Of a stretch of 59,723 nt of DNA, positions 11,242 to 51,626 are shown piece by piece. Under the pieces are notes generated by a model, which had not been told where the DNA came from, searched no databases, and worked only from the letters and a program-made list of their open reading frames with translations. The stretch covers positions 1-59,723 of the forward strand of contig JAZKII010000013.1 of NCBI GenBank assembly GCA_040384945.1. The letters run 5' to 3'. Position 1 is the stretch's first letter, and each line of letters starts with the position of its first letter. A program made the position numbers and the translations under genes. The stretch comes from Pseudomonadota bacterium (GTDB taxonomy: Bacteria > Pseudomonadota > Alphaproteobacteria > Rickettsiales > UBA1997).

Positions 11242-11994
11242 ATGGCTGTAACATTACCTTATTCAAATCCAATTGGTTCTAGTTACAGCCATTTAACCCC
11301 CGAAAGACCTCTTCTTACCCGCGAAGAAATCGCCGCAAACAAAAAGCTCGCAAGATATCATCTCACAATAACGCAATCTTTAAATGATGAACAATTTAGA
11401 GCAATGGGCGTTCATACTGGATTCAAACAAGAAGAAAGCGCATTTACCCAAGCATTAGAAGTTGGGGGGAAAGTTTCTGGATTAATTCCAGTTCCAGTTG
11501 CAAGTCAAATAGCAGAACTAGCTTTCATGAGCGCACATTTTGCATCGGGCAAAGTTGAAGATCACATTAATCAGGTTAAGTCTGATAAAATTTTAGCAAT
11601 AAATCCTACTCACGATCCGGTTGAATGGAAAAAATTCACTGAAGAATTAGCAATAAAATTAACCAGTGAAAAACAAGATGAAATTAAAGCCTGCGAAGCT
11701 CCGGCTAAAGGAGATCATTTTGCTCAACGTATTAAAAACATCCTTTATCCTAACCGAACTCCGAAAGATTCCTCATTAGCCGTAAAATCTTTAGCTGTTA
11801 GAGATTGCTCAAAAATGATTCAAACAATTTTAAATAAAGAATTGGATGAAAATGCTCCAGGAATTGAAAATGAAAATAGCAGAAAATCATTAGTTTCAGA
11901 GCTAGTATCCTCAACGAAAGCGCCTTCCAAACATATTGAACCAGAAGGAGCAAAAACTGTTTTTGCCTTCAATCATTTAGTTACTTCGCATTAA
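11242..11994 (+). CDS. hypothetical protein (250 aa)
   Basis: ORF starting 10 nt after the pal stop. No signal peptide or recognisable domain, and not CpoB/YbgF-like. Its 3' end overlaps the convergent 1098-aa gene by 14 nt. Confidence 0.5.
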   Translation: MAVTLPYSNPIGSSYSHLTPERPLLTREEIAANKKLARYHLTITQSLNDEQFRAMGVHTGFKQEESAFTQALEVGGKVSGLIPVPVASQIAELAFMSAHFASGKVEDHINQVKSDKILAINPTHDPVEWKKFTEELAIKLTSEKQDEIKACEAPAKGDHFAQRIKNILYPNRTPKDSSLAVKSLAVRDCSKMIQTILNKELDENAPGIENENSRKSLVSELVSSTKAPSKHIEPEGAKTVFAFNHLVTSH

Positions 11995-14900
11995 CCCACA
12001 TTTTCGCAATTTTCTCGCCTAAAGAATTTTGCTCACAGCGATTATGTAAATGCCCAAAATCCAATTTATCCATATTCTGGTCTTGATTGGCACAAGCATA
12101 AAAATATTCCTTCTCACCTTTTTCATTCACTCTTTTTTGCAAACATTGCGAACAAACACCTTTCAACATACATTGCATTGGTGCGTTCAAACTAGTGATG
12201 GCAATAGGTGCTTCACTAATTGAAGGCACTAAATTTTGATGACGCAACTTGGCAATTTCATGCATCATTTGATCATTTCCAATCGTAAAAATACGATCGA
12301 TTTTTTTAGGATTTTTCAAAAAGTAATCTGCTAAAACTTCAATAACCGAGCCATTTTCTTCATCAATTGCTATCTGCAAAACATCACAGGATTTTTGCAT
12401 TTTTTCCAAACGCACAATCTCCGATTTTTTGCGATAACCGGCAAAGAAAATCACTTCGCAACCATTTGTTTTACAAGCTTGCGCAATCGCAGTTAAAGGC
12501 TGATTTCCGCGGCCACCACCAACTAAAACTACAGTTTCATTTTTTGGAATTTCTGTTGGCGATCCGCTTGGACCCATAAAAACACAAGGCTCGCCCACTT
12601 TAAAATTTTTAATCAAATTAGTTGAAGCTCCAACTTCAACTACAACACCGCTAATAATTCCATTTTCACGATCAATCGAAAGTGCAGTTAATGGAACACC
12701 TTCCATAACTTGTAATTGATCGCCAATTTTCTGCGCCAAAGCGTGATAATTTTGTAACCTAAAAATATGCCCGATTTCAGTTTGTTTTGCCAACAGCGGA
12801 GCGCGCACCGACACTTCTAACACATAGTCAGAAAGCCTTTCGATTTTTTCGATTTTTACTAAAAATTCAGAATTTATTTTATCTAAAAAACCCTCTGCAA
12901 AATTCGCCGGTTTTTGTGCCAGAATTTTCGTAATTTGATCATGTCCTAATTTTGCACTCGCCATCGCCTTCACAACATTTCCTTCAAAATTCGGATGCAA
13001 ATCACCAAAAAAACTCACAGCTTTTCCTGAATTTTTATCAATTTTCGTAATCACGCTAAACTGCTGCGGACGCGCGCTGTGTGTGGCATCAAAATGTCTT
13101 TCCTTTTCATCAATTTCGGAAAAATATTTTCCATCCAATTTAAAATCCAAACCATCTTCCAAAGCCGGCGAAATATTTGGCGTAGTTCCTGCCGCAATCA
13201 AAAGCGCTTTGCATTTGAAATTTTTATCATCGGCGCATTTCAGGTTTTTAATATGACCAAATTCATCAATCTCAACTTCCAGCGGCGTAATATTTTCGAC
13301 AAATTCTACACCTTCTTCAAAAGCTTTATTCAACTCTTGATGATTCAGCCTGTAAGCTGGAGAATCTTGCAATTTTTTGCGGTAAATAATTTTTGCGCCA
13401 CCCCATTTTTTCAGCAATTCAAAAGCATTATTATTTTTTAATTCTTCAGCATGTTGCAAAAATTCTGCTGCAATAATTTTTTCTTCTTCATTTAAAATTG
13501 CCCAAATTTTTTCTTTGCCGATTGCCGCAACTTTCTTGGCAAATTTTTTAATCTGCACTAAATAATAAGCCTGCGCTTCACAAGCTGTATCGACAGCCGT
13601 AAGCCCCGCGCCAATTACCAAAATCGGCATACGAACTTGCAGATTGGTAAATAATTCTTCTTTGAAAGCGCCGGTTAATTGCAGCGACATCAAAAAATCT
13701 GAAGCTGAACGCACGCCTTTGGCAAAGTTATTTTTTAAATTAATGATGTTGGGCCGACCTGCGCCAATACAAAGTGCAACATGATCAAAACCGTAATTCT
13801 CAAAAGCAGTTTTATCAGTAATTGACGAACCAAAACGAATGCCGCCAAACATGCGGAAATTTTTTCGGCGCTCTAAAAGCAAGCGAATAACTTTTAAGAA
13901 ATTTTTGTCAAAACGCACCGTAATTCCATATTCCGCAACGCCGCCAAAGCCATGAATCAAGCGGCTTGAAAGCGGTTCATAAATTTCATCTAAATATTTG
14001 ATCGGCTTAAATTTTTGACGATTTCCAAATTCATCGATTCCAGAAATTTGTGAATTTAATGGCTCAATTTTTAAACCATCAATTGCTACAATTTCATGAC
14101 CGTCATTTAGCAAATGATGCGCTAAAGTATAGCCTGCAGGCCCGAGTCCAGCGATCAAGATTTTTTTACCTGTCTTTTTTTGCGGCAAATTTTTAGCAAT
14201 ATTTAACGGATTCCAGCGCGTTAAAAGTGAATAAATTTCAAAGCCAAACGGCAGAGCTAAAACATCTTTTAAAGTACGCGTTTCAATTTGCGGAATATCA
14301 ACAGGATCTTGTTTTTGGTAAATGCACGATTTCATGCAATCATTGCAAATACGGTGTCCGGTGCCAGCAATCATTGGATTATCAACCACAGCAACCGCAA
14401 AAGCAGCGAGTGAAAAACCTTCAGATTTTAACAAATTCATTTCCGAGATTTTTTCATCTAGCGGACAACCATGAAGTTCAACACCGAGAGGATCAATTTT
14501 TAAATTATTACCGGAATTTGCCGGCGTATGTACAGTGTGTGGTGGTGCTTTAATTCCGGTTTTACAGGAATCTTTTTCCTGCTTGTGGCAGAAAATGCAA
14601 TAATTGGCCTCAGCCAACACACGATTGAGTCCAAAGCCATCATCAGTTAAATTAAAACCATCTCTTTTTGATTTTTCATGAGTTGGATTTAACAGGTTTT
14701 GGTGATCGATTTTTTTCGGCAAAATAAAAAGCGCACCATTTTTGTGAAGACGGCGACCTTGCTCTGAATAAAGCGCCCAAACTGAATAAAGCGTTAATTC
14801 TTCTAAATTTTTTTCTTGAGAAATTTCTTCGGCGAGTTGTTTTTCCAGATCATCAACATCATCAAAAGGAATATTTAATTTCTTGAGAATGCTTATCCCA

Positions 14901-18574: not shown

Positions 18575-19065
18575 AAGTTGCCCGGCTTCTGTTGACAGGC
18601 GCCGGGCGGCCCCGATAAAATCACTTATACTAAGCAGCTAATGCCACTGGAGTAAATTCGAAGTTATCATTAGCAAAGTTGTCGTTTGCATTTACTGTTT
18701 TGAACGGATATTGCGTAAGGCTTGCGCCTCTAGCAACCGGCAGTTTCTCAACCGGGTAAAATCTAGTCCTTTATCGCATGTCGAAAGCTGTGTCACCCCC
18801 CAGGTGCCTAGAACATTCTTTGCCTGCGGCAAAAGAAGATTTTGTAGCGTGGGATGGCCCGCTCCGCCGTCGCCCTTTGGGCTATGGCGGACAGGCAGTC
18901 TTCGCCCTAACGATCTCCGTCTAACAGTCCAGGACAAGCCTGGCCTGCCAGCCGAAGCCCGCAAGGGCGAAGGCTGGAGGTGCTGGGTACTGCCCCCAGG
19001 TCCATGTACGTTTATTACGAAAAGAGTTTATCACCATATTTGGCGAACGAATCCGCCAACGGGAA
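18575..19065 (-). ncRNA. ssrA: tmRNA (ssrA), circularly permuted two-piece type; ends approximate
   Basis: The minus strand shows the tmRNA 5' end GGGGGUGACACAGCUUUCGACAUGCG (from ~18800). It also carries the tag frame GCA AAC GAC AAC TTT GCT AAT GAT AAC TTC GAA TTT ACT CCA GTG GCA TTA GCT GCT TAG, which reads ANDNFANDNFEFTPVALAA-stop (18689->18630). Upstream in the gene is the arm CTGGG-GGCAGTA-CCCAG followed by CACCTCC-A (18999->18975). That 3' strand pairs perfectly with GGGGGTG, including a G3:U70 pair. A TATAAT box lies at 19079->19074. The terminal hairpin is GCCCGGC...GCCGGGC (18607->18580). Confidence 0.85.
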
Positions 19066-19207
19066 TTAATTTAATTATAAAAAAATTTTAAACAAGCTTG
19101 AGGGTGGTTTATTGTAATAAAAATCTGGTATGGCTCAAATCCTTATGAATCACACCGTGAAGATGGGGTGACAAATTTAGAGTTAGTTGGATGAACTATA
19201 ATCATTG

Positions 19208-22179: not shown

Positions 22180-24018
22180 CTACGAAATAACGCAACACCC
22201 TCTTGAATTAGCTGCCGATACTGCTGCAGACTCAACCGAAGAACTTGGATGTCTTTCTCTCTCTTGCTCGATCATGAGGTTAATAGTTGCTCTAGCATTA
22301 GCTATTCTCTCTGGATTATTGGAGTGGTCATCAGGCTCTAGCTCATTTAGATAACCTTCAATCGCTTCAAGAAAGGTTTCAACCTTCACTTCCAGAGAAA
22401 CACAATGACTCAATTCTTCTTTTGCGATATTTCCATAGAGTGCATAAAAATCTTGCGAATTCTCATCCATCGGAACAATTCTGATGCCATGCATTTTATC
22501 TCTATCCTCAATCTGTAATATCTCTGGATTTTCAGCAAAACTCTGACTATTACCCTCTGTAACTTTAATACCATTATCTAGAAAAATTTTCTTTAGAACC
22601 TTGATAACACTACCTCTTCCCATAAGCAATCCATCCTCTACTTCTTTCGGAGTCCAGTGAAAACTAAAGCCACTCTCTTTGTGACGAGGTAAAATTTCAC
22701 TCTCATAATTTGGCAATAGTTTCATCAATTGCAAAGTTGGTAATTCAGTAGTTTGGCATCCAGCCGCCATTACATGAAAAACCTTTCCATCTTCATCCAA
22801 AGATTGCAAAGGCCACAACATAATTGAACCTGGCTTCAGAGAAAAATCTTTGACTAATTTCAAAATGCTACCTTCATTTCTGTAGCCAGAATATATAGGA
22901 TTTAATTGCAGAATCGAATCGAGATTCTCTGCGGAAATATTGAATTTATATTCGATTACATCGCCTAACTCGCCCGGCTTTATCTCCAAAAAATCTTTTC
23001 CACTTAATTTCTTGAATCCCAATTGCCTTGACTGAAACTTCAACTGCTCAACAAAATAGCCCGCCTCAATAGAGCTTATAAAACTATGATTATGATCTGG
23101 GTAATAAGATCTGGACTTCTCATAAGTCTCAGTCGAAACAAAAAATGAAACTGAATTATCAGCAAGATTTGAAAGTGCTCGAGGATATTTATTCAGATCC
23201 TTATTCTGAACGCCTTCAGTAATAGAACTCACAAATTGATACCATTCACTTCTGTCATCATGAATATTTCTGCGATCCTGCTGATCATTTAAATATTTAT
23301 ATTCAGGATCTAAAATCTTTAACTCAAACTCATTAGCGCCAGCCTGCAATAAAACATCAACCATCTCCTCATCTCTTCTGTCATGTGCAATAACTAATGC
23401 CGATTTTCCTTCTCTGTCTAATTCATCAATATCAACTCCCGCTTTCAGTAGCGCTTTGATAACCTTGCTTGCGTTACTTTTTTTTTGCTCGCGCAGAGAT
23501 TCTTTTGCCTCATCCATAAATTCTTTCTCATCTTCTTCTTTAAATCTTGTCCAAACGCTAATACTACTACCCTCATCACGCACAATCTTTTCAGGAACAT
23601 CTTCTTCTTTAAACGTTACCTGCTCTCTTTCTATAGTATATGTTCTCACTTGCTCGCCCACAATTTTTCTCTCTCGCTTTGCATCCTGCATTCTCTCGTC
23701 TGCATAATGGTAAATCAGGCTATTTACTCTACCAAATAGCTCCATCAAAGCATTGCGCCCTTGAAGATTTTTAATATCGAGATTTGCACCTTGTTCTAGA
23801 AGCTGTTCTACATATTTCAAATGCTGCAATTGCACAATTGGTAAATGACCTATTTGGTAATCCGCACCAAATTCCCGACAAGCTCTAATCAGCTTAGTAT
23901 CACCATTTTCATCGCATTCATTTATATCGCCTACAACCTCTCCGGTAGAGGAAATCAATTTATTTATAAGAAATTTTCTGTCTCTATCTATTAAATAATC
24001 ATCCGCATATCTAGACAT
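22180..24018 (-). CDS. ankyrin-repeat protein with C-terminal CaaX box (candidate host-prenylated effector)
   Basis: The ORF track starts at TTG 24030; ATG at 24018 is preferred (MSRYADDY...). ANK-like repeats: GDTKLIRACREFG..., LLEQGANLDIKNLQGRNALMEL, LLKAGVDIDELDREGKSALVIAHDRRDEEMVDVLLQAGAN. A ~350-aa C-terminal region is unassigned. The last codons TGT TGC GTT ATT TCG TAG encode C-C-V-I-S-stop. Confidence 0.8.
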   Translation of the reverse strand: MSRYADDYLIDRDRKFLINKLISSTGEVVGDINECDENGDTKLIRACREFGADYQIGHLPIVQLQHLKYVEQLLEQGANLDIKNLQGRNALMELFGRVNSLIYHYADERMQDAKRERKIVGEQVRTYTIEREQVTFKEEDVPEKIVRDEGSSISVWTRFKEEDEKEFMDEAKESLREQKKSNASKVIKALLKAGVDIDELDREGKSALVIAHDRRDEEMVDVLLQAGANEFELKILDPEYKYLNDQQDRRNIHDDRSEWYQFVSSITEGVQNKDLNKYPRALSNLADNSVSFFVSTETYEKSRSYYPDHNHSFISSIEAGYFVEQLKFQSRQLGFKKLSGKDFLEIKPGELGDVIEYKFNISAENLDSILQLNPIYSGYRNEGSILKLVKDFSLKPGSIMLWPLQSLDEDGKVFHVMAAGCQTTELPTLQLMKLLPNYESEILPRHKESGFSFHWTPKEVEDGLLMGRGSVIKVLKKIFLDNGIKVTEGNSQSFAENPEILQIEDRDKMHGIRIVPMDENSQDFYALYGNIAKEELSHCVSLEVKVETFLEAIEGYLNELEPDDHSNNPERIANARATINLMIEQERERHPSSSVESAAVSAANSRGCCVIS

Positions 24019-24026
24019 AACTTTTC

Positions 24027-24473
24027 TCAAATAATTTCTTTCATGAAGTGAAAGCCGCGAATGTGAAAGTCTTCTTTAAAATAGAGAGAATGTGATTTTT
24101 TATTTTCGGTGAATGAATCAAGAACCATCTTTTCACAATTTAATTTTTTGCCGATTTTTTCGATTTCGCGCAGGATTTTTTTACCAATTCCAAATCCTCT
24201 TTTGTCTTCATCAACAATAAAACTTGAAACCTGAATATAACGGCCGCAATAAAGCATACGTAGCACCCAATAACCGGCAACTCCGATTATTTCATCATTC
24301 AAAAAAGCACCGATCATTTTAAAATCATTCATCGCAATCATTTCAGAAATCTGGCTTTGAAAATTTTCCAAAGTCATTTCGCGATATCTTTGCTTGATAA
24401 TCGAATAAGCCAGCAGCATTTCATCCAAATTATTCAGCTCTTTAATCGTGATTTCTTCCGCAATTTTTTCCAT
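24027..24473 (-). CDS. GNAT-family N-acetyltransferase
   Basis: About 148 aa from ATG 24473 (the track starts one codon earlier at TTG). Acetyl-CoA binding motif ...RGFGIGKKILREIEKIGKK.... Confidence 0.8.
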   Translation of the reverse strand: MEKIAEEITIKELNNLDEMLLAYSIIKQRYREMTLENFQSQISEMIAMNDFKMIGAFLNDEIIGVAGYWVLRMLYCGRYIQVSSFIVDEDKRGFGIGKKILREIEKIGKKLNCEKMVLDSFTENKKSHSLYFKEDFHIRGFHFMKEII

Positions 24474-28125: not shown

Positions 28126-28175
28126 AAAACCCCCCGATGGTTTTAAAGCCAGTTTTAAAGCCATTGGGGGGTTTT
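28126..28175. terminator. bidirectional intrinsic terminator hairpin between convergent gabD and the pilin-like gene
   Basis: AAAA-ACCCCCCGATGG...(loop)...CCATTGGGGGGT-TTTT. The 13-bp stem has one G:T pair and is flanked by an A-run and a T-run. Confidence 0.6.
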
Positions 28176-28199: not shown

Positions 28200-30122
28200 T
28201 TAATTAGTATAACGAACAATCACAATTCCAGATCCTCCCGCTGCTGCTCCTCCTCCAGGACCACCTGCGGCAGCACCGCCGCCACCACCCGTGTTAGCAG
28301 TTCCAGCAACTGCAGCAGAATTTGAAGCAGCACCGCCTCCAGCACCGCCGCCGCCGGAGCCACCGGCTGCTATATTATTTGCACCCTGATTTGAACCGCC
28401 ACCGCCACCAGCATAAGTTAGAGTTGTTCCACTAATTGAATTTGTAGCACCATCACCTCCGGCACCTCCCAACTCAGAAGCTGCACTACCATTTCCGAAT
28501 CCCCTTACACCAGCACCGCCAGCACCGCCGCCGCCGCCGCCGCCATCCCAGCCAACACCCATACCACCACCACCAACATTACCTGAAGAAACTCCACCCA
28601 CCCCGGCAATTACAGCTCCTCCAGTTGTCATGTTATAATCACGACTAGCACCACCACCAGAACCACCTGCCATTGGCAATACATTTGTTGCACCACCACT
28701 ACCTCCTCCATAAGCAATTATCGCAGTATCAAAAGATGAATTGCCTCCACTACTTCCTGCTCCACTACTTCCACCACCAGCACCACCGGCACCTACTGTG
28801 ATTGCATAAGATTGCGCAGTTAGAGAATAAGAAGAATTATAAACAAATCCGCCACCGCCTCCGCCTCCGCCAAACCAACTACCACCACCACCACCAGCTA
28901 CCACCAATATTTGTGCGTTAGTATTTTGACTGCAGGTAAGTGTTTGAGTTGATGTAAATACATGAATTATTTCTCCAGCAACAGTATACATCGTGGTGTT
29001 ACCTCCACTACATTTAGGATTTACACAAACTCCACCAAGTAAATAATATCCGGTGTCACAGGCACACATAGTCGGGGAAGCTGAAAGGACAAGGGTTCCA
29101 GCTGAACAGCCTAATGTTACAGTTCCAACATAACCTGTTCCGCAAGTCCCGGTTACACCGCTTGCTCCTTGTGTTACTATCGATGGAGAAGAAAGACCAA
29201 CTACACTCGCTGTTGAACAATCCATTGTGCAGCCATCTGTTGTCACAATACCATTAATGCAAGAGCCACTCGCATTTGAAGTTCTATTTACTTTAGTAGA
29301 GTATTTTTTACCCAAATAATCTTCCGTGGTTTTTCTTTCATCAGATTTTAAAGCTCTGGTGAAAATAGCAATTTCTCCGATTTCGCCAGTGTAACCTTTA
29401 CCAATAGCCAGTGTTGTTATATTTGACAGTTTTGTAGTATCAGAGTTTTGAGCAGCGAGAATGCCGTTAATGTAAGTTTTTTTACCATTTACGGAATCAG
29501 AAACAAAAGTGAAAATTCTTGGAGTATCAGTTGATGAACTGTAAGTACTTATGCTCGAAGTATAAGCATTCCCAGTTCCCTGAGAATGGGAAATTTGAGC
29601 ATCGGCTGTGTAACCTAATAATAAGGTTTGGTTCGCTGTTGATACTGTACTATCACCAATAAAATACCCAGCTGAGGCGCTTTGGCGCTTTTCTAAAACT
29701 ACAATCGTGTAATCGGTGTTATTTAAAAAACTTGCGTCAGAAACTTGTAAATAATTGGCAGCACTACCACTGAACTTTACAGAGTGAATATAATTAATCG
29801 TATTGGAATAAGTTGGACCAGTCCCTACTGCAACTATAGTAGATTTATTAACCGCATTCTTTTGGTCATACCAAGTTGTTACAGCATCTCCAGTAGAAGT
29901 TTCTGCATCTTTAAAACTTTCTTCTAAGCTACTTTCTAACCAGATAGCATTGTCCTGAATTCCAGCAATTGGAGAGGTTTTAGTTAAATTTTGAGCTGCG
30001 GTAATCTTGGATTTTTTTACTAACCCAGTAGCTCCCATTATACCGGCAATTAAAATTCCGATGATTACGATTACAGCGGAAAGTTCGATTAGGGTGAAAG
30101 CAGAAGGCGTTTTTTTAATCAT
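28200..30122 (-). CDS. prepilin-type N-terminal domain protein with LamG-like domain, Cys-rich spacer and polyglycine-rich C-terminal domain
   Basis: 640 aa. N-terminus MIKKTPSA/FTLIELSAVIVIIGILIAGI is a class-III signal (Glu at +5). The LamG-like region ends ...GYTGEIGEIAIFTRALKSDERKTTEDYLGKKY. A ~100-aa segment contains 11 Cys. The C-terminal ~240 aa is dominated by Gly runs and ends ...GGSGIVIVRYTN. Confidence 0.75.
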   Translation of the reverse strand: MIKKTPSAFTLIELSAVIVIIGILIAGIMGATGLVKKSKITAAQNLTKTSPIAGIQDNAIWLESSLEESFKDAETSTGDAVTTWYDQKNAVNKSTIVAVGTGPTYSNTINYIHSVKFSGSAANYLQVSDASFLNNTDYTIVVLEKRQSASAGYFIGDSTVSTANQTLLLGYTADAQISHSQGTGNAYTSSISTYSSSTDTPRIFTFVSDSVNGKKTYINGILAAQNSDTTKLSNITTLAIGKGYTGEIGEIAIFTRALKSDERKTTEDYLGKKYSTKVNRTSNASGSCINGIVTTDGCTMDCSTASVVGLSSPSIVTQGASGVTGTCGTGYVGTVTLGCSAGTLVLSASPTMCACDTGYYLLGGVCVNPKCSGGNTTMYTVAGEIIHVFTSTQTLTCSQNTNAQILVVAGGGGGSWFGGGGGGGGFVYNSSYSLTAQSYAITVGAGGAGGGSSGAGSSGGNSSFDTAIIAYGGGSGGATNVLPMAGGSGGGASRDYNMTTGGAVIAGVGGVSSGNVGGGGMGVGWDGGGGGGGAGGAGVRGFGNGSAASELGGAGGDGATNSISGTTLTYAGGGGGSNQGANNIAAGGSGGGGAGGGAASNSAAVAGTANTGGGGGAAAGGPGGGAAAGGSGIVIVRYTN

Positions 30123-30271
30123 TTAGAAAAAAGGGTTTTTCTTAAAAAATTAAGATAAAATTTATTAATAACTAAAATTGCTATTCATCATTAAAACAAA
30201 ACCATGTCAAGAATTAGTCTTGGCATTTAAGATAATTATCCCTTGAAGCACAATTATTAGATATTTATTTT

Positions 30272-32059
30272 TCAAATCAATAAATCTTCTATCAACATCT
30301 GCACTTTTTCAACACCCATCCAACTGTTGATATTCAAGGTTCCAACTAGATTTAATGGTTTGGTGAATTTCGGATCCAGTAAAATTTCTCCCAGTGGAGT
30401 ATTAGTACTTCGAAAAGCAACTGCCTGAATTTGTCCGGTAAAACCTACTGCGGATTTTGTACAAAAAATACCACTAATATGTTCACCGGTTTTTCCGATT
30501 ATATTGGCTTTTACTTTTTGCACATCGCGCAAAATAAATTTTGGCCGTGCATTGCCAACACCAAATGGTTCTAGCTTAGAAAGCTCTTTTAATAGTTCGA
30601 TATTTACCTGCGGCAAATCAAGAGCAATATCAAATTCCATTTTCTTATGAGCTGAAAGTTCCATAATTTTTTCACCTAAATTTTGGTTAAAAAATTGGTG
30701 AAGCTCAGAAATTTTCTCCGGTAAAACTGAAAATCCACCCGCCATTGCGTGACCACCGCCTTCAAGCAACAATCCTTCCAAACGCGCTTTTAAAATTTCT
30801 CCGCCAAAATCAATTCCGGAAATTGAACGACATGAAGCCTTGCCTTTCTTACCTTCATCATCAATTGCGATTACTGCGACCGGCTTGTTGTACAAATCTT
30901 TTAAGCGCGATGCCACAATTCCGATCACGCCTTGATGCCAATATTTTGAAACCGCAAAAATCACCGGATCTGTAGTTTTAAAGCCACCAACACCTGATTC
31001 TAAAGCTTTCACCGCCTCTTCTAAAACCTGCACTTCAATTTCTTTTCTTTGTTTATTTAAAATTTCCAACTGCGCTGCAATTTCTTTTACCTCACCTTCA
31101 TCTTCACTTGATAAAATTCTGGCACCTAAATCTGATTTTCCGACACGCCCTCCAGCATTGATTCGCGGGCCAATTATAAATCCTAAATGATAAGCACTTG
31201 GCTCTTCATCAAGACCCGCCAAATCACAAATTTCGCGCAGTCCTAAATTTTTTCGCTGCTTTAAAATTTTTAAGCCCGCACTTACGAAAGCACGATTTAA
31301 GCCGGTTAAAGACATTACGTCGCACACAGTTCCAAGCGCAACGAGATCTAAAAGATTTAATAAATTCGGTTCTTTTCTTTGCGCATAATAATTTTCTTCA
31401 CGAAGTTTTTTATTAATCGCCACCGCGAATAAAAATGAAACTCCGGCAGCACAAAGATTTTTATGAGGAAAAATTTCATTTAAAAGATTGGGATTGATAA
31501 CCGCGATGGCATCAGGCTTTTCAAGCACTCCCAAATGATGGTCAATTACAATTATTTCTAAACCAACCGCCGCGGCATCTTCTAAAGGCTTGAAAGCAAC
31601 GGTTCCGCAATCAACTGTAATTACAAGGTCAGTACCGTTTTTTTTGAGGTTTAAAAGCGCTTGCGAATTGGGGCCATATCCTTCCAAAACACGGTCAGGA
31701 ATGTAAATTCCGACATCAATTCCAACTTCACGAAAAAAGCGTTTTAGCGTTGCAGCAGAGGTTGCGCCATCAACGTCATAATCAGCAAAAATGGTGATTT
31801 TTTTATTCTTTTTAACTGCTTCAATAACGTGAGCGACAGCTTTATCCATATCGCCTAATTCAAAAGGATTGGGCAGCGCGGTTTTGATTTTTGGTTCTAA
31901 AAAATTTTCAATTTCATCTAAAGAAATTTCGCGACTGGAAAGTAAGTTACTTAAAACTTCAGAAAGTTGAAAACGCTGATAAATAGTGCTGGCGTGGCGT
32001 TCATCAAAAGTTTTTTGTTGCCAGTTGAGACCGAGAATTGAGGTTTTTTGTTGGGTCAT
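30272..32059 (-). CDS. recJ: single-stranded-DNA-specific exonuclease RecJ
   Basis: 595 aa. DHH motifs IFADYDVDGATSAA and VIDHH. DHHA1 motif GGHAMAGG. Confidence 0.9.
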   Translation of the reverse strand: MTQQKTSILGLNWQQKTFDERHASTIYQRFQLSEVLSNLLSSREISLDEIENFLEPKIKTALPNPFELGDMDKAVAHVIEAVKKNKKITIFADYDVDGATSAATLKRFFREVGIDVGIYIPDRVLEGYGPNSQALLNLKKNGTDLVITVDCGTVAFKPLEDAAAVGLEIIVIDHHLGVLEKPDAIAVINPNLLNEIFPHKNLCAAGVSFLFAVAINKKLREENYYAQRKEPNLLNLLDLVALGTVCDVMSLTGLNRAFVSAGLKILKQRKNLGLREICDLAGLDEEPSAYHLGFIIGPRINAGGRVGKSDLGARILSSEDEGEVKEIAAQLEILNKQRKEIEVQVLEEAVKALESGVGGFKTTDPVIFAVSKYWHQGVIGIVASRLKDLYNKPVAVIAIDDEGKKGKASCRSISGIDFGGEILKARLEGLLLEGGGHAMAGGFSVLPEKISELHQFFNQNLGEKIMELSAHKKMEFDIALDLPQVNIELLKELSKLEPFGVGNARPKFILRDVQKVKANIIGKTGEHISGIFCTKSAVGFTGQIQAVAFRSTNTPLGEILLDPKFTKPLNLVGTLNINSWMGVEKVQMLIEDLLI

Positions 32060-34119: not shown

Positions 34120-34986
34120 ATGAATTCCAAAAAAGCCTATTCTTTATTTGAAACTTCATTAGCCATAGTAATTCTCGCCATTGTGATTGGAGGCACTATA
34201 CAAGGCAGTCGCCTGGTTGCTCTGTATCGCCTGCAAACTGCGCAAAGCCTAACTCAAAGTTCACCGGTTAGTGCAATGAAAAATCTTGTTACCTGGCTGG
34301 AAGCAACATCGGAAACCAGTCTTGATGATGAAGAAGAAATAGATGGCTCTAAGATCACCAATTGGTATGATCTAAACCAGCAAACAAATGTAAAAAATAA
34401 TGCGGTAAATAATTCTGCCACCGTAAGCGACCATCCAACTTATAAAAGCAAATGCATCAACAACCTTCCCTGCCTTCAGTTTAACGGCACTTCGCAATAT
34501 ATGGATATAACACAAAATGCCGGTTATACTAATGAATTAACCATATTTGTGGTGTTTCTTTCATCCAATGATGCTTCTGACTTCCATACCATTATCGGAG
34601 CAGATGGCACATGGAGCAGCGGCATCAGTTTTCGGTTTAAGCGTTCTACCGCTGTAAATTATCAAACTCCGGATTTCAATAATGACACCTCAACTGGCGC
34701 ACTTTTAGCCAATAAAAATTATATAGCTGCTGTAGTCGATGGCTCTAGCACTATTACCAATTACCTAAATGGAACTGCGGGCACAACCACAACCGTACTG
34801 CCCGCCAACCGCCTGACAAAACGCTTATCTGCGCTTAACATTGCATCTTCAACAATGGGCACTCGCAGTAATTTCTTCGACGGCAATATTGGCGAAATAA
34901 TAATTTTTGATCGTGCTTTGAAAAATTATGAAAGACAAAATGTTGAAAAATATCTAAGCCAAAAATGGCAGATTCCGCTTTCTTAA
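34120..34986 (+). CDS. pseudopilin-like protein with LamG-like domain (paralog of the 640-aa protein N-terminal half)
   Basis: 288 aa. N-terminus MNSKKA/YSLFETSLAIVILAIVIGG (Glu at +5 if cleaved after Ala). Shares ...AQ.LT..SP......WLE.., ..WYD.. and ...G.IGEI.IF.RALK..ER...E.YL..K... with the 28200..30122 product. Confidence 0.65.
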   Translation: MNSKKAYSLFETSLAIVILAIVIGGTIQGSRLVALYRLQTAQSLTQSSPVSAMKNLVTWLEATSETSLDDEEEIDGSKITNWYDLNQQTNVKNNAVNNSATVSDHPTYKSKCINNLPCLQFNGTSQYMDITQNAGYTNELTIFVVFLSSNDASDFHTIIGADGTWSSGISFRFKRSTAVNYQTPDFNNDTSTGALLANKNYIAAVVDGSSTITNYLNGTAGTTTTVLPANRLTKRLSALNIASSTMGTRSNFFDGNIGEIIIFDRALKNYERQNVEKYLSQKWQIPLS

Positions 34987-38129: not shown

Positions 38130-40880
38130 CTAAAACATCTGTTTCACCTTTGCCGCCATATAATGCGATTGAAAAGTTGCCCTTTTTTCGAAACCATATT
38201 CCAAACTAAAAATTATATCTTCCACATGATGTGCTTCGATTTCCGCGCCAAGTTTTAAACTGCTGCGATCAACGTGGTAAATTTGTGTAGTGAAGTTTGT
38301 TGTTTGTCCATCAAAGCTACTTACTGTAACCGGTGCATCATTTATAAAACTATAGCCGTAAGAAATTTTCAAAAGCGAATCTACTTTATTTAACTCGGGA
38401 AATTCCGGAATTTTTGTGGTTACAAAACCTAAATTCGTACCAATTCTGCCTTCTAAAAAATTCGCCGAAATATTTTTTACACTTAAATTCAAACTATCCG
38501 CACCTTTCTCGCTGTAGCCTTGAATATTAGTTCGAACAAAACTCATCGCAACTTCCGGGCCAAAATTAAAACCATGTTTTAGCTTCTGCGAAAACCCAGC
38601 TTTGGTTTTGGCGATATAAGTTTGACCATTAAATTTTGCTGTCGCATTTGCATCAACCGCAGTAATTGAACGATTAGAATTATATTGATTCCAGGCAATA
38701 CCAGCAAGGCTGTCGAAGAAATATTTATTAAAATTACAACCGCTGTAAAAATTAATTTGGTAAGTATCAATGACATTATTTTTTGATGAATCGAGTGATT
38801 TTAAATTTGAGCGTGCATAGCTTAAAGCCGCGCCGATTGTGCTTGAATTAGAAAGTTCGCGATCTGCACCAACAGACAATCCGATTGTATTTACTTTGTA
38901 ACCCTCATCATCTTCTATCGCATTTTGGGTTGCAGAATTGCCAAAAGCCTGAGTCCAAATTCCACTTTTTAAATCGGTATTGGCATGAATTTTCCGCAGT
39001 CGGGTTTCAGCGGTTTTTATGGAATTTGTGGCAAGATTGATATTATTGGCGATCATTGCCTTGCTTGATTGTGGAGCTAATTGATTTAGTGATTTTGTGA
39101 TTTCATCACTACTTCCCAAATATTCCTGAAATGCCAATAATTGACCCGTAGAATCAACCCCAATTTCATTAAGATTTTGGTAAATATTTTGGGAATTTTT
39201 ATTACTCGTAACTTCAGAAGCCGCAAGTCGATCAATGTTTAAAATCAAATTATTGGCGCTTGATTGTGTGGTGAATTTTAACAAGCCGTAAATATTTGAA
39301 CTTGCTCCATTTACTGAAATATTTGCATCATTAATTGCATTTATTGATCCACTTCCAGCACTTATGATTGTAAGCTGTGTGCCATCTGCAATATATCCTT
39401 GATCGGCACTTGTAGTAATTTCTAAATTGGAATTTGAATCAATATTTGCCGCACCTAAAACTGTAAAATTTCCGACAGCATTTTCTTTTAATGTAACTGA
39501 TAAAGTATCACCACTTAATAAAGAAAAATCGCCGCTGATTATTTGATTATTGGAACCAATATTAATCACTCCCGAACCACTGCCAGAAAGGCTTCCAAAA
39601 ATTTCTAAATTATCAGTCGCAGAAAAATCAAAATCTCCACCAACTAAAATATTATCGGCATAAATATTGTCAGAATATGTCAAAGAAGAGCCGGAATTTA
39701 TATTTAAATTAGCGAGAGAATTTCCTGAAATTCCAAGTGAATTGGTAGACGTAAAATCAATTCCTGAAATATTTAAAGTTCCATTAGAATCAGATAGGCC
39801 TTGAATTGCGGCGCTAACGGAAGAACCATCACTTAAAGTTAATGTAGAATTTGCATCAAGAAAAACTGTCGCAACTTCAATTTCATTTTCTGAATTTAAA
39901 GTTGCGCCGGAAGTTACGGTTAAATTTGTTAAATCAGAAAATACTGAAGTTTGATTAAAATCTGCAGCGATATTTACATTTCCTAAATCGCCTACAACCT
40001 CGCCACTTATACTTCCGCCGTAAATGTTTAAAGTGCCACCACCCAAATGAATGCCGCCGTTTAAAGTGCCGGAATTATTAATTATTGAATTGGCACCGGA
40101 ATTATAAATCGCATATTTCGTCGCAGTTATCGTGCCGGAATTGGTGATTGCTGAATTGTCGCCTTCTGTAATTATTCCGTAAATACTTGTGCTGCTTTCC
40201 GGCGTGATTGCGCCTGAATTCGTAATTTGAGTGTAATTATCTTTGGCATAAATTCCATGCGAATTGCTGGTAATTGTTCCGGAATTATTGACAGTGCTAA
40301 AATTTGTGGAACTAGCGCCGGAGCCACTTCCGGCGCTAACATAAATTCCGTAAGTTTGCGAAGTTGTAATCGAACCGGAATTGGTAACTGAGTTATTATC
40401 GCCATTTAAATATATGCCGTAAGATGTGCTATTTACTGTAGAAATTATACCGGAATTATTGGCGGAATTACTATTGCCACCCAAATAAATTCCATAAGAA
40501 GTTGTGCCTTGCGTGCTGATGTTTCCTGCATTTATGACATCCGAAAAATTACCAACACTAATGCCACGCCCTGAACTTCCGGTAGTTAAAATTGTGGCGC
40601 CGGAAGAATTTGTAATTTGGTTGTAATTGCCGCTCGACCTAATGCCATAAGCGCTGGAAGTGGCTCCGGAATTTCCGGTTGTGATGGTGAAACTGTTAGT
40701 GATTTTATTGAAAGATGAACTGGTTCCAACGAGAGAACTGATGATTCCGCTGGCACTGGTGGTGATGTCGGAAGGAGTTGTATAATCAGTTTGGCCGGAA
40801 GTTAGAGTAACGGCTCTTGCAGAGTTAGTAATAAATAGCAGACAGCAAAATGCTGAAAAGCGGTGACTTTTTTTAGGCAT
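38130..40880 (-). CDS. autotransporter outer-membrane protein (beta-helical passenger + C-terminal beta-barrel)
   Basis: 916 aa. Signal peptide ...LFITNSARA. The passenger has periodic rungs NSG.I.T....YGIY (SYGIYLGG, SYGIYLNG, TYGIYVSAG, HGIYAKDN...). The C-terminal ~280 aa has alternating-hydrophobic barrel strands and ends ...KVKQMF. Confidence 0.8.
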   Translation of the reverse strand: MPKKSHRFSAFCCLLFITNSARAVTLTSGQTDYTTPSDITTSASGIISSLVGTSSSFNKITNSFTITTGNSGATSSAYGIRSSGNYNQITNSSGATILTTGSSGRGISVGNFSDVINAGNISTQGTTSYGIYLGGNSNSANNSGIISTVNSTSYGIYLNGDNNSVTNSGSITTSQTYGIYVSAGSGSGASSTNFSTVNNSGTITSNSHGIYAKDNYTQITNSGAITPESSTSIYGIITEGDNSAITNSGTITATKYAIYNSGANSIINNSGTLNGGIHLGGGTLNIYGGSISGEVVGDLGNVNIAADFNQTSVFSDLTNLTVTSGATLNSENEIEVATVFLDANSTLTLSDGSSVSAAIQGLSDSNGTLNISGIDFTSTNSLGISGNSLANLNINSGSSLTYSDNIYADNILVGGDFDFSATDNLEIFGSLSGSGSGVINIGSNNQIISGDFSLLSGDTLSVTLKENAVGNFTVLGAANIDSNSNLEITTSADQGYIADGTQLTIISAGSGSINAINDANISVNGASSNIYGLLKFTTQSSANNLILNIDRLAASEVTSNKNSQNIYQNLNEIGVDSTGQLLAFQEYLGSSDEITKSLNQLAPQSSKAMIANNINLATNSIKTAETRLRKIHANTDLKSGIWTQAFGNSATQNAIEDDEGYKVNTIGLSVGADRELSNSSTIGAALSYARSNLKSLDSSKNNVIDTYQINFYSGCNFNKYFFDSLAGIAWNQYNSNRSITAVDANATAKFNGQTYIAKTKAGFSQKLKHGFNFGPEVAMSFVRTNIQGYSEKGADSLNLSVKNISANFLEGRIGTNLGFVTTKIPEFPELNKVDSLLKISYGYSFINDAPVTVSSFDGQTTNFTTQIYHVDRSSLKLGAEIEAHHVEDIIFSLEYGFEKRATFQSHYMAAKVKQMF

Positions 40881-45753: not shown

Positions 45754-47460
45754 ATGGTAACATCATCAGCTAATGTCGATATTGGCGCTCGACTCATAGA
45801 AAAGAAGGTTATCTCCGAAGATCAACTAACCATTGCCCTAAAGGAACAAGCGCGTCTGAAAGGCGCGAAGACCGTTGGTGCTATCTTGGTCGAAATGGGA
45901 TTTATCTCCGAGGGTGCGCTAGGAGAAATTTTAAATGAATCAACCGGTATCAAAAAATTTGATATTAAGGCTTCGATCATTGATGCAAAATTAGTAAAAA
46001 AAGTTCCTAAAGAATTCGCCGTTCACAATAAATTAATTCCGGTTTCATACACTCACGATTCAATCACTCTCGGCATGTCCGACGTTTTTGATATTGTAGC
46101 GATTGATCAAGTACGTCGTTATTTCCCGCCAAATTTCCGCATTAATCCGGTTTACGTTGCCGAAGTAGATATCTTGCAAGCGATCGATCAATATTACGAT
46201 TACGAGATGTCGATCGAAGGTATTTTAAAAGAGATCGAAGGCAGTGCCGGTAAAACTAATATTAATGACGAAACGCAACTTCGCGGTGACTATAAATCCC
46301 CGATGGTACGTTTAGTAGATGCGATTTTAACTGACGCGGTACACCGTGGCGCATCGGATTTACACTTTGAGCCGGAAAATCTTTTCCTTAGAATTCGTTA
46401 CAGAATTGACGGAAAAATGGTGCAAGTGCGTTCGGTTCACAAAGATTATTGGTCAGCAATTGCGGTTCGTATTAAAATCATGTCGGGCATGAACATCGCA
46501 GAAAGCCGCAAAGCACAAGATGGCCGTATCAACTCAGAAATTTTGGGCAGAAAAATCGACTTTCGTGTTTCAACTCAGCCCACAATTTATAGTGAAAATA
46601 TCGTAATGCGTATTTTGGATGAAAAATCGTCCATTTTGTCGCTCGATAAACTTGGTTTTTCGGAACATAGTATCAATTTGTTAAAGAAAGTGGTGCAACG
46701 TCCAGAAGGCGTAATCATTCTTACCGGTCCGACAGGTTCTGGTAAAACCACTACTCTTTACACGATTTTAAATCACATCAACTCGATCGATAAAAATATC
46801 ATGACTTTGGAAGATCCGGTGGAATATCACATTCCCCTGATTCGCCAGTCAAATATCAGAACTGACGTGGGTATGGATTTCGCATCAGGTATCAAAGCCT
46901 TGCTACGTCAAGATCCCGACGTAATTCTAGTCGGTGAGATTCGTGATAAAGATACCGCAATCGCCGCAATTCAAGCTGCGATGACTGGTCACCAAGTATA
47001 TAGCTCGCTGCACACTAACGACGCTTTAGCAGCAATTCCGCGTTTGATGAATATCGGTGTACCAAATTATTTAATGGCCGGATCCTTGATTTGTATAGTT
47101 GGACAACGTCTTGCTAGAAAATTATGTCCACATTGTAAAAAAGAACATCCTCTTGATAGTTTCGAAAAAAGACTTTTAGGTCCAAAACACAGTAATATTG
47201 ATAAAATCTTTAAAGCCGTGGGCTGCGAAAAATGTCGCGGTGGTTATAAAGGTCGTATAGTAGTTTGCGAACTCCTGCCTTTTGACCGCGAACTCGACGA
47301 ACTAGTTGTAAACGAAGCCAGTCGTAAAGAATTGTTAACTCATGCTTTGAAAGAAGGCTTTGTACCAATGGTTGAAGACGGTATTCAAAAAGTACTAGCC
47401 GGAATTACTGATTTAAAAGAATTGATGAGGGTGGTTGATATGACGGATAGGATGAACTAA
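45754..47460 (+). CDS. GspE/PilB-family type II secretion / type IV pilus assembly ATPase
   Basis: 568 aa. N-terminal GSPII_E_N-like domain, Walker A GPTGSGKTTT, Asp box and Walker B (ILVGEIRD), and tetracysteine CPHC...CEKC. Confidence 0.85.
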   Translation: MVTSSANVDIGARLIEKKVISEDQLTIALKEQARLKGAKTVGAILVEMGFISEGALGEILNESTGIKKFDIKASIIDAKLVKKVPKEFAVHNKLIPVSYTHDSITLGMSDVFDIVAIDQVRRYFPPNFRINPVYVAEVDILQAIDQYYDYEMSIEGILKEIEGSAGKTNINDETQLRGDYKSPMVRLVDAILTDAVHRGASDLHFEPENLFLRIRYRIDGKMVQVRSVHKDYWSAIAVRIKIMSGMNIAESRKAQDGRINSEILGRKIDFRVSTQPTIYSENIVMRILDEKSSILSLDKLGFSEHSINLLKKVVQRPEGVIILTGPTGSGKTTTLYTILNHINSIDKNIMTLEDPVEYHIPLIRQSNIRTDVGMDFASGIKALLRQDPDVILVGEIRDKDTAIAAIQAAMTGHQVYSSLHTNDALAAIPRLMNIGVPNYLMAGSLICIVGQRLARKLCPHCKKEHPLDSFEKRLLGPKHSNIDKIFKAVGCEKCRGGYKGRIVVCELLPFDRELDELVVNEASRKELLTHALKEGFVPMVEDGIQKVLAGITDLKELMRVVDMTDRMN

Positions 47461-50209: not shown

Positions 50210-50740
50210 ATGAAAAATATAAAAAAAGAACCACTATTATTTCTTTTATTAGGCTCAATTTTTGCCCTCACTTTCGCCTACATCTCGCAATATGTTTTCG
50301 ATTACCAGCCTTGCATTTTATGTCTTTACCAACGCAAACCTTTTTTCGCTGTAATCGCTCTGAGCCTTATCACGCTTACTTTCCTAAAAACCAAACAAGC
50401 AAAAAAAATCTCATTTTTCTGCTGCATAATTTTTCTGTTAATTAATTGCTGCATCGCTTTCTACCACGTCGGAGTTGAGAAAAAAATATTCCGTGGCCCA
50501 ACTACTTGCTCATCAGCAGAAAATTTAAATGAAATCGACAATCTGCAAGACTTAGAAAAAGCCTTGCTAAAAACCAAAGCCATCAGATGCGATCAACCCA
50601 GCTTTGTATTTCTTAGCCTTTCAATGGCAGCGTGGAATTTTATTTACTGCCTGGCGTTGATTCTATTAGGTTTAACTTTTTATCGATCACTTGTTTCGGC
50701 TTCGCCAAAGTTGTACAAGAACGTTTCGAACAATCAGTAA
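50210..50740 (+). CDS. dsbB: disulfide bond formation protein DsbB family
   Basis: 176 aa with 4 TM segments. First periplasmic CxxC (CILCLYQR) and a second Cys pair in the large loop (TTCSS...IRCDQ). Confidence 0.75.
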   Translation: MKNIKKEPLLFLLLGSIFALTFAYISQYVFDYQPCILCLYQRKPFFAVIALSLITLTFLKTKQAKKISFFCCIIFLLINCCIAFYHVGVEKKIFRGPTTCSSAENLNEIDNLQDLEKALLKTKAIRCDQPSFVFLSLSMAAWNFIYCLALILLGLTFYRSLVSASPKLYKNVSNNQ

Positions 50741-51626
50741 GCAAGGCATTAACCGTTGTTTCAAAAAGCTGAAAAATATCGCCGCTATTAGCTCCAGCGC
50801 CAACTGTGAAAGGCAGCCAAACCACTCTGATTTTTGTTCGATCTCTTATCCAAAGTAATGTTTGTTTATCTTCATATCCTCCAAAAATTATCGCCTCAAC
50901 CGGATTAGTTTTAAGATTTTTAATCACTTCATTTAAAGCAACCTGATTAGGTTTAGCGCCGGTTGTAGCGTCGCGAAGCGTGATTATTTTTAGCCCCAGC
51001 CATTCTGCTAAAGTTGACCATGAATTATCATTAGCGATAAAACTTAAGCCTTTAAGTGGCTCAGCTTTTAACTCCCATCTTAAAATCGCCTTGTCCCATT
51101 TTTTTATGAAACTGTCATAATTAGTTTGATAGGCTATGGAATTGAGCGGATCAATAATCTTGATGCGACGCGTAAATTCAGCAGCAATTAACGCAATATA
51201 ATGCGGATTTAAATGTACGCGCTCGCCTTTCCACAAATAGCCTAATTGATTAGGACGATCGACCACCATTCCTTTCGGAATCTGCTTCTTTCCCACATAA
51301 TCAGCTGCATAAAACATAGTAATTTCACCCGACAAAAATTTTAAATTAGCACTGCTTTTTATCAAATAAGTAAGCCATTTTGATTCCAAATCATTGCCAC
51401 TGCAAAACATCATGTCGGCATCACGCGCAATCGCAACCAATGGCGGTTTAACCAATAATTTTTGGGGATTTTGGCTCGAATTTGTGGCGATTACAACATC
51501 GGCTTTGGTCTTGACAATTTGCTTGGCGACGCCCGCCCATTCTGGCTCGCAGGCTAAAATCGTCACTCTCGCTTCGGCATTGGCGCAGACCAAAATAAAG
51601 CCCAAAATTAAAAGAATTTTTTTCAT
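50640..51626 (-). CDS. TroA/ZnuA-like periplasmic metal-binding protein (orphan, divergent ligand positions)
   Basis: 328 aa. Signal peptide ...CANAEA. ZnuA-like layout (V.ILA.EP....A..I......V..., DADMMFCSGNDLESKWL, HLNPHY..., ...PNQVALNEVIK.L....V.AIIF). The first DPH-type position reads NPQ. No ABC permease or ATPase is adjacent. The 3' end overlaps dsbB by 101 nt. Confidence 0.65.
   Translation of the reverse strand: MKKILLILGFILVCANAEARVTILACEPEWAGVAKQIVKTKADVVIATNSSQNPQKLLVKPPLVAIARDADMMFCSGNDLESKWLTYLIKSSANLKFLSGEITMFYAADYVGKKQIPKGMVVDRPNQLGYLWKGERVHLNPHYIALIAAEFTRRIKIIDPLNSIAYQTNYDSFIKKWDKAILRWELKAEPLKGLSFIANDNSWSTLAEWLGLKIITLRDATTGAKPNQVALNEVIKNLKTNPVEAIIFGGYEDKQTLLWIRDRTKIRVVWLPFTVGAGANSGDIFQLFETTVNALLTDCSKRSCTTLAKPKQVIDKKLNLIESTPGSK

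Follow-up and report, generated by a model that had tools for sequence, protein, structure and literature searches.

A prepilin-type signal, a LamG domain and a phage fibre-type glycine-rich tip joined in a protein family of Rickettsiales-related bacteria

RESULTS

Domain architecture of the pilin-like protein

The window analysed here comprises 59,723 nucleotides (nt), positions 1 to 59,723 of contig JAZKII010000013.1, from a member of the Rickettsiales lineage UBA1997 (Alphaproteobacteria; GenBank assembly GCA_040384945.1), and our subject is a gene on its minus strand that encodes a modular pilin-like protein of 640 amino acids (aa). The protein has four parts, namely a class III signal with helix alpha1, a LamG domain, a Cys-rich stalk and a TNF-like/glycine-rich tip, the last of which has its homologues in the tips by which phage tail fibres bind receptors. 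The gene and its parts are as follows:

28200..30122, minus strand: modular pilin-like gene, 640 aa (open reading frame, ORF; Pfam and NCBIfam matches; full-length AlphaFold2 model with a predicted local distance difference test score, pLDDT, of 93.0)
29973..30122, minus strand: residues 1-50, leader MIKKTPSA, alpha1N and long alpha1 helix (PF07963, TIGR02532, AlphaFold2 helix, family conservation)
29283..29972, minus strand: residues 51-280, LamG/concanavalin A-like jelly roll with C-terminal helix 260-273 (AlphaFold2, Foldseek, PF13385 in homologues)
29001..29282, minus strand: residues 281-374, disulfide-rich stalk of small beta-hairpin modules with 9 of the 10 Cys (Cys positions, AlphaFold2 hairpins)
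29025..29066, minus strand: residues 353-366, EGF_2-type signature CACDTGYYLLGGVC (regular expression C-x-C-x2-[GP]-[FYW]-x4-8-C)
28203..29000, minus strand: residues 375-640, TNF-like beta-sandwich with glycine-rich lattice and terminal strand GGSGIVIVRY (PF21722, AlphaFold2, Foldseek, BFVD, PHROGs)

A sequence-only reading of this gene had proposed (i) a prepilin signal with Ala at position -1 and Glu at +5; (ii) a LamG-like jelly roll; (iii) a stretch with 11 Cys; and (iv) a glycine-rich C-terminal domain from residue ~400, likened to phage fibre tips and, distantly, to the glycine-rich domain of the ALK/LTK receptors. Profile matches and structural models bear out the signal, the jelly roll and both likenesses. 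The Cys-rich stretch is likewise present and carries an EGF-like signature, but it holds 10 Cys rather than 11, and the glycine-rich domain begins at ~375-390 rather than at ~400. That this last part might be disordered low-complexity sequence, a concern voiced in the same reading, is not what the models indicate: it is folded, with a pLDDT of 93.

The N-terminus reads MIKKTPSA/FTLIELSAVIVIIGILIAG, i.e., a basic leader of eight residues with Ala at -1, followed by Phe at +1 and Glu at +5, with a predicted cleavage site between Ala and Phe. Residues 7-28 matched Pfam N_methyl (PF07963) at 21.9 bits against a curated cut-off of 21.2, and the NCBIfam prepilin-type cleavage/methylation domain (TIGR02532) was matched at 22.3 bits against a cut-off of 16.3. 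Other NCBIfam matches, to GspH, GspG and the Verru_Chthon cassette protein D, were weak and confined to the N-terminus. In the AlphaFold2 model, residues 11-48 form a helix (pLDDT 88-97) of the extended length expected of alpha1, and the hydrophobic residue at +1, the Glu at +5, the alpha1N segment and the hidden Markov model signature of pilins are all present. Across the family, Glu+5 is near-invariant and Phe+1 is conserved, and the residue at -1 in related loci is Ala in 80 and Gly in 5 of 87 N-termini.

The full-length model was computed from an 85-sequence family alignment and reached a mean pLDDT of 93.0 and a predicted template modelling score (pTM) of 0.62. In this model, strands between residues 58 and 254 form a beta-sandwich (pLDDT ~95) that is closed by helix 260-273, and the motif GEIGEIAIFTRALKSDERKTTEDYLGKKY, quoted in the sequence-only reading, is present in this region. 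The 640-aa protein itself stays below the Pfam reporting level for PF13385 (Laminin_G_3), a family matched by many homologues (E = 2e-9 to 4e-7) and by a paralogue in the window (E = 7e-9). A Foldseek search with the full-length model returned concanavalin A-like lectin domains at E ~1e-7 to 1e-6, comprising clostridial neurotoxin binding domains, a trans-sialidase lectin domain and a cyanopodophage tailspike, together with, at rank 45, PilC of Streptococcus sanguinis, a modular minor pilin (7oa8; E = 2e-6).

Between the LamG domain and the tip lies the stalk, modelled as hairpins at residues 292-367 (pLDDT 79-92). The Cys residues are at positions 288, 298, 302, 327, 339, 353, 355, 366, 371 and 397. 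The EGF_2-type signature was found by the same regular expression in 75 of 119 family members; no Pfam EGF match was obtained for the 640-aa protein. The number of stalk modules differs among homologues, some of which carry insertions of more than 100 residues.

A phage fibre-type glycine-rich tip

Residues 391-638 matched Pfam Gly_rich_2 (PF21722) with E = 3e-20 over 222 of 226 profile positions, the fold of the tip begins at residue ~375-384 (the final domain of the full-length model spans 384-639), and 38.6% of residues 400-640 are Gly. A separate model of the tip (C-terminal 266 residues), computed from 49 sequences, reached a pLDDT of 93.2 and a pTM of 0.92. It contains nine Gly-rich segments, with ~14 motifs recognised by eye, and DSSP assigned most of it to neither helix nor strand, a pattern of the model that is consistent with polyglycine-II segments.

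Several searches tie this domain to phage fibres. More specifically, Foldseek against the PDB matched the tip to the fibre of cyanophage Pam3 (7ypx_A, E = 5e-6) and to the tail tip of mycobacteriophage Bxb1 (9d93, chains Qb and Qa, E = 5e-5), followed by TNF-like/glycine-rich entries of ALK/LTK at E ~3e-3 to 2e-2 with template modelling (TM) scores of 0.23-0.28. Among the predicted viral structures of BFVD, 239 matched the tip at E<1e-3, with query-normalised TM scores of up to 0.85 and 30-44% identity; most of them are named 'glycine-rich domain-containing protein', and they come from cyanophages, a Pelagibacter phage, uncultured tailed phages, prasinoviruses and Halorubrum phage HF2. At the sequence level, the family profile matched the Pam3 fibre (E = 6e-4), including the terminal strand (GIVIVRY here, GIIIVQY in Pam3), and a search of PHROGs returned phrog_2295 (E = 5e-44) and one tail-category family (2e-8). 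Whole-protein phmmer against PDB sequences gave no match, whereas the family profile and the fold search did. A tblastn search with the tip against 50,697 GenBank phage records was also without a match, likely on account of the BLAST low-complexity filter. Taken together, the tip is homologous to the glycine-rich receptor-binding tips of phage tail fibres. In Pam3 gp24, such a tip comprises a conserved glycine stem, a GGGGxGG lattice and a hypervariable distal end proposed to recognise the host receptor (PMC9608196), and the same type of bundle occurs in S16 gp38, Bxb1 gp33 and ALK (PMC13243192). The 640-aa protein falls outside the ALK/LTK family: the fold similarity is remote, and in Pfam at E<=1 only PF21722 and PF07963 were matched, the ALK/LTK glycine-rich family being absent.

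A large family with a conserved carrier and a hypervariable distal end

A word-indexed search returned more than 2,093 related proteins at E<=1e-3, nearly all of the best ones with the same architecture. Likewise, exhaustive phmmer comparison of the N module (residues 1-285, i.e., pilin helix plus LamG) with 1.84 billion cluster representatives yielded 272 clusters at E<=1e-30 and 1,644 at E<=1e-10. The contig index had no exact entry for the 640-aa protein itself. Where the N module is N-terminal, total lengths range from ~270 to ~1,290 aa. In the source databases, members are labelled 'prepilin-type N-terminal cleavage/methylation domain-containing protein', 'LamG-like jellyroll fold domain-containing protein' or 'hypothetical protein'. 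As a side observation, three giants of 3,100-4,600 aa (P0188, P0236 and P0244) carry up to 11 tandem LamG copies that are closely related to those of the family and are not N-terminal; these proteins may be a source, or another use, of the LamG module.

A scan of 185,579 species genomes located 77 loci, all from 19 metagenome-assembled genomes (MAGs). These are labelled Rickettsiales, Alphaproteobacteria or Pelagibacterales, apart from Rhizobium and Rickettsia labels that are evidently automatic, and their habitats, where recognisable, are lakes, groundwater and the Black Sea. Two lake MAGs hold 16 copies of the N module each and others hold 9, 8 or 7, for a total of 88. Since many copies lie at contig ends (L001, L012, L034, L055, L068, L069, L072, L075 and L077), these are minimum counts; indeed, the paralogues seem to break MAG assemblies.

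When tip domains in these loci were counted by profile search, 39 complete ORFs combined the N module with one tip and 2 with two tips. A further 29 complete ORFs had the N module and no tip above the length threshold, being short forms of ~290 aa or carrying other C-terminal modules, such as Ig-like repeats or, in one case, a match to a SUEL-type lectin (E = 1.5e-6, below the Pfam cut-off). In some MAGs, at locus L021 (4192-6685, plus strand) and also at L008 and L070, what would be expected to be a single gene is split by frameshifts or stops, so that N module and tip occupy neighbouring ORFs or separate frames; pseudogenes, phase variation or assembly errors could be behind this.

Conservation falls steeply along the protein. 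In the ten nearest homologues, identity is 79-87% for helix plus LamG, 61-79% for the stalk and 32-53% for the tip, where the non-Gly positions are only 11-41% identical. In the tip alignment, variable segments with 16 indel hot spots are interspersed between conserved Gly cores. A conserved carrier with a hypervariable and exchangeable distal end is, as judged from these alignments, the pattern expected of a recognition module. Because the carrier module is the most conserved and the distal end is variable, the LamG domain may here have a conserved structural or docking role rather than determine specificity. Self-blastn of the gene against the window showed short internal Gly-codon repeats and nothing else, i.e., no signal of diversification by a diversity-generating retroelement or by repeats. 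No reverse transcriptase was found among the 42 window ORFs scanned against Pfam, with about a dozen further ORFs of >=120 aa lying outside that scan.

Genomic setting and candidate machinery

Further features of the window that bear on the gene are as follows:

28128..28173, no strand: palindromic hairpin with a 20-bp stem and T-runs on both sides, between the pilin-like gene and the convergent gabD-like gene
30253..30295, minus strand: two overlapping sigma-70-like promoter matches, tentative, immediately 5' of the pilin-like gene, partly within the end of recJ and partly intergenic
34120..34986, plus strand: short paralogue, 288 aa, with the signal KKA/YSLFE and LamG, and neither stalk nor tip (tblastn, 30% identity over residues 8-324; PF13385, E = 7e-9)
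45754..47460, plus strand: PilB/MshE/GspE-type filament assembly ATPase, 568 aa (T2SSE, E = 3e-123, plus MshEN; TIGR02538 PilB, 522.6 bits; GspE, 499.3 bits)
50210..50740, plus strand: DsbB, periplasmic disulfide formation (PF02600, E = 5e-31)
18576-19095, minus strand: two-piece (permuted) alphaproteobacterial transfer-messenger RNA adjoining sspB, in agreement with the class-level taxonomy

The neighbours of the pilin-like gene are the housekeeping genes nth, gabD-like (aldehyde dehydrogenase), recJ and ilvD, and a homologue on another contig stands likewise alone among core genes. The hairpin is probably a bidirectional terminator. The order recJ, family gene, gabD is kept in two other MAGs, in which RecJ is 86-87% identical and the C-terminal modules of the resident gene differ; in one of them, its product of 886 aa includes two Ig-like repeats and ends in a tip that has diverged. 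MAG Loc080925_bin-0125 represents nearly the same organism as the window, with neighbouring genes that share 93-97% protein identity. On this sequence evidence, the family is cellular and vertically placed. At locus L062, two orphan ORFs lie 3' of the 886-aa orthologue (13272-14616, plus strand), one Cys-rich and stalk-like and the other LamG-like, and they resemble remnants left by module shuffling or by the decay of paralogues.

The PilB-type ATPase is a candidate motor for assembling the pilin-like proteins, as proposed from its profile matches. Its MshEN N-domain is of the type that binds cyclic di-GMP, and the gene is solitary, standing between gltX and apaG outside any pil operon. The order gltX-pilB recurs at L062, where ~11 kb encompass pilB together with one long and one short family gene. 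Further machinery was sought by tblastn with Escherichia coli HofB, HofC and PpdD plus GspC-O, in the window and in 1.07 Mb of family-gene flanks. The matches were PilB in the window and at L062; at L036, a weak match fell on a solitary 335-aa T2SSE-family ATPase that is VirB11- or PilT-like. DsbB belongs to a system that the 10-Cys stalk would require, and it provides supporting context rather than a dedicated part. As listed, its ORF and that of a convergent ZnuA-like protein (50640-51626, minus strand) overlap by ~100 nt, and the start or stop of one of them may be wrong.

The short paralogue converges with dprA, with 3 bp between their ends. A link to competence through this gene was considered and dropped, since transcription of the two genes converges and they are not neighbours at L062. 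Neither the short paralogue nor the 640-aa protein matched any PADLOC defence model.

Elsewhere in the window lie a 916-aa autotransporter (38130-40880, minus strand) and a 616-aa ankyrin-repeat protein (22180-24030, minus strand). Both are typical of host-interacting bacteria and are the sole hints at lifestyle in the window. Three ORFs had no match in Pfam (E<=1e-5) or NCBIfam (E<=1e-3): 44-1852 (minus strand, 602 aa), 8116-10560 (minus strand, 814 aa) and 11242-11994 (plus strand, 250 aa).

DISCUSSION

A probable modular filament subunit

On balance, we consider it probable that the 640-aa protein is a modular type IV filament subunit, minor-pilin-like, which bears a receptor-binding tip of the phage type and belongs to a set of alternative adhesins. 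A modular pilin is defined by an N-terminal prepilin methylation motif together with at least one domain that is not pilus-specific, and both are found here, in the form of N_methyl plus LamG and Gly_rich_2. Under this proposal, the protein would be exported, its disulfides would form (DsbB is present), and a prepilin peptidase would then remove the 8-residue leader. The PilB-type ATPase, whose gene lies at a distance of 15.6 kb, would build the pilus or pseudopilus that receives the helix, the stalk would hold the glycine-rich domain away from the filament, and the variable tip loops, set on a conserved polyglycine scaffold, would bind a ligand on another cell or surface. The dispersed paralogues would have the carrier in common and vary at the tip (one or two glycine-rich domains, Ig-like repeats, possibly a SUEL-type lectin, or none), and jointly they would equip the cell with a range of binding specificities, comparable to what phages achieve with exchangeable receptor-binding proteins. 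Leader cleavage, incorporation into a filament, the position therein, the ligand and expression are what we infer. The sequence-only reading had likewise seen a pilus- or pseudopilus-displayed adhesin or ligand-binding module; this is still the best explanation, and the PilB-type ATPase in the window fits it, while display on a filament is the part that stays conjectural.

Several observations weigh against this proposal. First, type IV pilins carry Gly at -1, and Ala is found instead; because Ala replaces this near-universal Gly, cleavage by a standard PilD-type peptidase is uncertain. Ala is the one substitution at -1 reported to permit partial cleavage in Pseudomonas. Second, the canonical beta-sheet head of pilins is absent from the AlphaFold2 model, in which the LamG sandwich comes directly after the helix and begins at residue 58. 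The pilin moiety of PilC of S. sanguinis is likewise atypical and reduced (PMC9934059). Third, the family genes are scattered singly among housekeeping genes and not placed in pil operons, and tblastn revealed no PilC/GspF, PilD/GspO or secretin in the window or in the 1.07 Mb, which cover gene flanks and not whole genomes. Fourth, no ordinary short pilin was found in the same sequences, where every class III signal belongs to a family member, and we know of no precedent among characterised type IV pili for sixteen large 'minor pilins' in one small genome. Finally, inspection of the sequence upstream of the gene revealed no clear Shine-Dalgarno motif, and GC content at third codon positions (GC3) is 0.236, as compared with 0.314 +/- 0.025 in neighbouring genes, i.e., lower by ~3 standard deviations.

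Many of these observations would be accommodated if the pilin-like segment were an inner-membrane anchor or a type II secretion-like export tag of a surface or released binding protein that is never polymerised, a function suspected for the large 'prepilin-type N-terminal domain' families of Planctomycetes, Verrucomicrobia and Lentisphaerae. Such a protein could dispense with Gly at -1 throughout the family and with a canonical pilin head, and it could be encoded in up to 16 scattered copies per genome; it would also agree with the lack, solitary PilB aside, of pil or gsp genes near any of the 88 family genes, and with NCBIfam matches that, beyond the generic motif, are weak and N-terminal only. 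What an anchor or tag leaves unexplained is the near-invariance of Glu+5 and Phe+1, residues that matter for filament assembly and N-methylation and not for membrane anchoring. Furthermore, the helix-proximal LamG domain is the most conserved module, which fits a conserved docking role in a complex, a stalked receptor-binding tip makes little sense in the periplasm, and a PilB-type ATPase has been kept in a small genome. We therefore regard the anchor or tag as rather unlikely, while ranking it first among the alternatives.

A second alternative takes the protein as a self-polymerising major subunit, with LamG, stalk and tip on every subunit of a thick 'bottle-brush' filament. It would account for the missing short class III pilin in the window and the related loci, and it agrees with the retention of Glu+5, which is typical of subunits with another subunit above them. 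Consistently, subunits without Glu5 are those at the very tip (PMC9934059). The search for short pilins, however, covered gene flanks only, a head of ~60 kDa on each subunit would be hard to fit when known type IV filaments rise by ~1 nm along the axis, and the extreme divergence of tips among paralogues argues for alternative adhesins rather than for a structural polymer; all in all, this arrangement seems improbable. Least credible, and largely refuted, is a prophage or phage-derived tail-fibre remnant, which could draw on the homology of the tip to phage and giant-virus glycine-rich fibre domains and on the deviating GC content (44% versus ~38% in the surroundings) and GC3 of the gene, but which we rejected for its housekeeping neighbours with no phage genes among the scanned window ORFs, its recJ-gabD position conserved in other MAGs, the absence of the pilin-plus-LamG module from 2.9 million viral contigs and from PHROGs, and a GC rise that is explained by GGN glycine codons, with GC3 lower and not higher than in neighbouring genes.

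Novelty and significance

The architecture had been called novel in the sequence-only reading, which is true of the glycine-rich tip on a pilin and not of the remainder: the protein is no one-off, with more than 2,000 relatives, and pilin plus LamG is an already catalogued modular-pilin architecture (PMC8179133). Literature searches on PF21722, and on pilin, prepilin or LamG together with glycine-rich or polyglycine, returned nothing relevant, and we found no description of a pilin with a TNF-like/glycine-rich domain or of the expanded family. What is new, then, is that a pilin bears a glycine-rich tip, and also that the family is so expanded and hypervariable. The same reading had assigned the bacterium an intracellular lifestyle, which finds no support here, the relatives being MAGs from the water column and groundwater.

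If the filament-subunit interpretation is correct and these proteins are displayed on pili, the modular-pilin principle would also cover a module hitherto known from virus fibres and animal ALK/LTK receptors, and a whole gene family would be seen to employ that principle for a range of binding specificities. Through these proteins, one could also test how freshwater Rickettsiales-like bacteria that are uncultured and have reduced genomes recognise their partners or hosts. In studies of how host association evolved, it is still asked whether such bacteria live freely, as epibionts or inside cells (PMC9352585, PMC10847448). Reaching further, one may speculate that a freshwater Rickettsiales-like lineage grafted a phage fibre tip onto a pilin and expanded the product into a set of up to 16 or more genes per genome that is hypervariable, swaps modules and acts as a determinant of host or prey range, i.e., 'tail fibres on pili' for attachment to algae, protists or other bacteria. 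We put this forward tentatively, as a possibility rather than an expectation. Were the grafting true, the polyglycine TNF-like domain would be a universal recognition module of phages, giant algal viruses, bacterial pili and animal ALK/LTK. A conserved scaffold with hypervariable loops may also be of interest for binder engineering, as are phage receptor-binding proteins. The paralogues are probably under-counted in current assemblies because they often coincide with MAG contig ends, and the family probably serves the gripping of other cells or surfaces.

Comparison with known systems

One resemblance is to the TG domain of ALK/LTK (7nx1, 7mzy, 7lrz), which also combines a TNF-like beta-sandwich with a glycine-rich lattice of extended helices and has an EGF-like module adjacent, albeit on the opposite side. 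The setting there is a receptor kinase, and the likeness of fold is remote.

Large minor pilins located at the filament tip, i.e., CofB of enterotoxigenic E. coli, TcpB of Vibrio cholerae and GspK of type II secretion, share with the 640-aa protein a pilin N-terminus joined to bulky beta-rich domains that can be accommodated only at the tip. Their extra domains are different, each is present in a single copy per system within a pilus operon, and a recognisable pilin head is kept. CofB and GspK have been discussed as likely modular pilins (PMC8179133).

As regards the distal end, Pam3 gp24 (7ypx/7yfw) and the Bxb1 tail tip (9d93) have the same fold and detectable sequence homology, whereas gp38 of Salmonella phage S16 is remoter (PMC9608196, PMC13243192). 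The shared traits include ~39% Gly, GGGGxGG-type motifs, a terminal G-I-V/I-I-V-x-Y strand, and a glycine scaffold with variable loops. In phages, these tips are borne on trimeric helical or fibre shafts and sometimes need a chaperone; here, the tip follows a pilin helix, a LamG domain and a disulfide stalk, with no phage genes nearby.

In overall design, the closest characterised relative is PilC of S. sanguinis (7oa8), in which a class III signal with alpha1 and a reduced pilin moiety is extended by a concanavalin A-like/LamG lectin domain. PilC is a proven lectin adhesin that binds glycans and is predicted to lie at the pilus tip (PMC8179133, PMC9934059), and pilin plus PF13385 ranks among the 15 commonest modular-pilin architectures (PMC8179133). 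PilC is encoded by a single gene in a pil operon, whereas the protein described here, known from sequence and model, belongs to a diderm alphaproteobacterium with dozens of dispersed paralogues, has Ala at -1, and adds an EGF-like Cys stalk and a glycine-rich tip. The LamG domain, presumed to be the specificity module in PilC, is here the conserved one.

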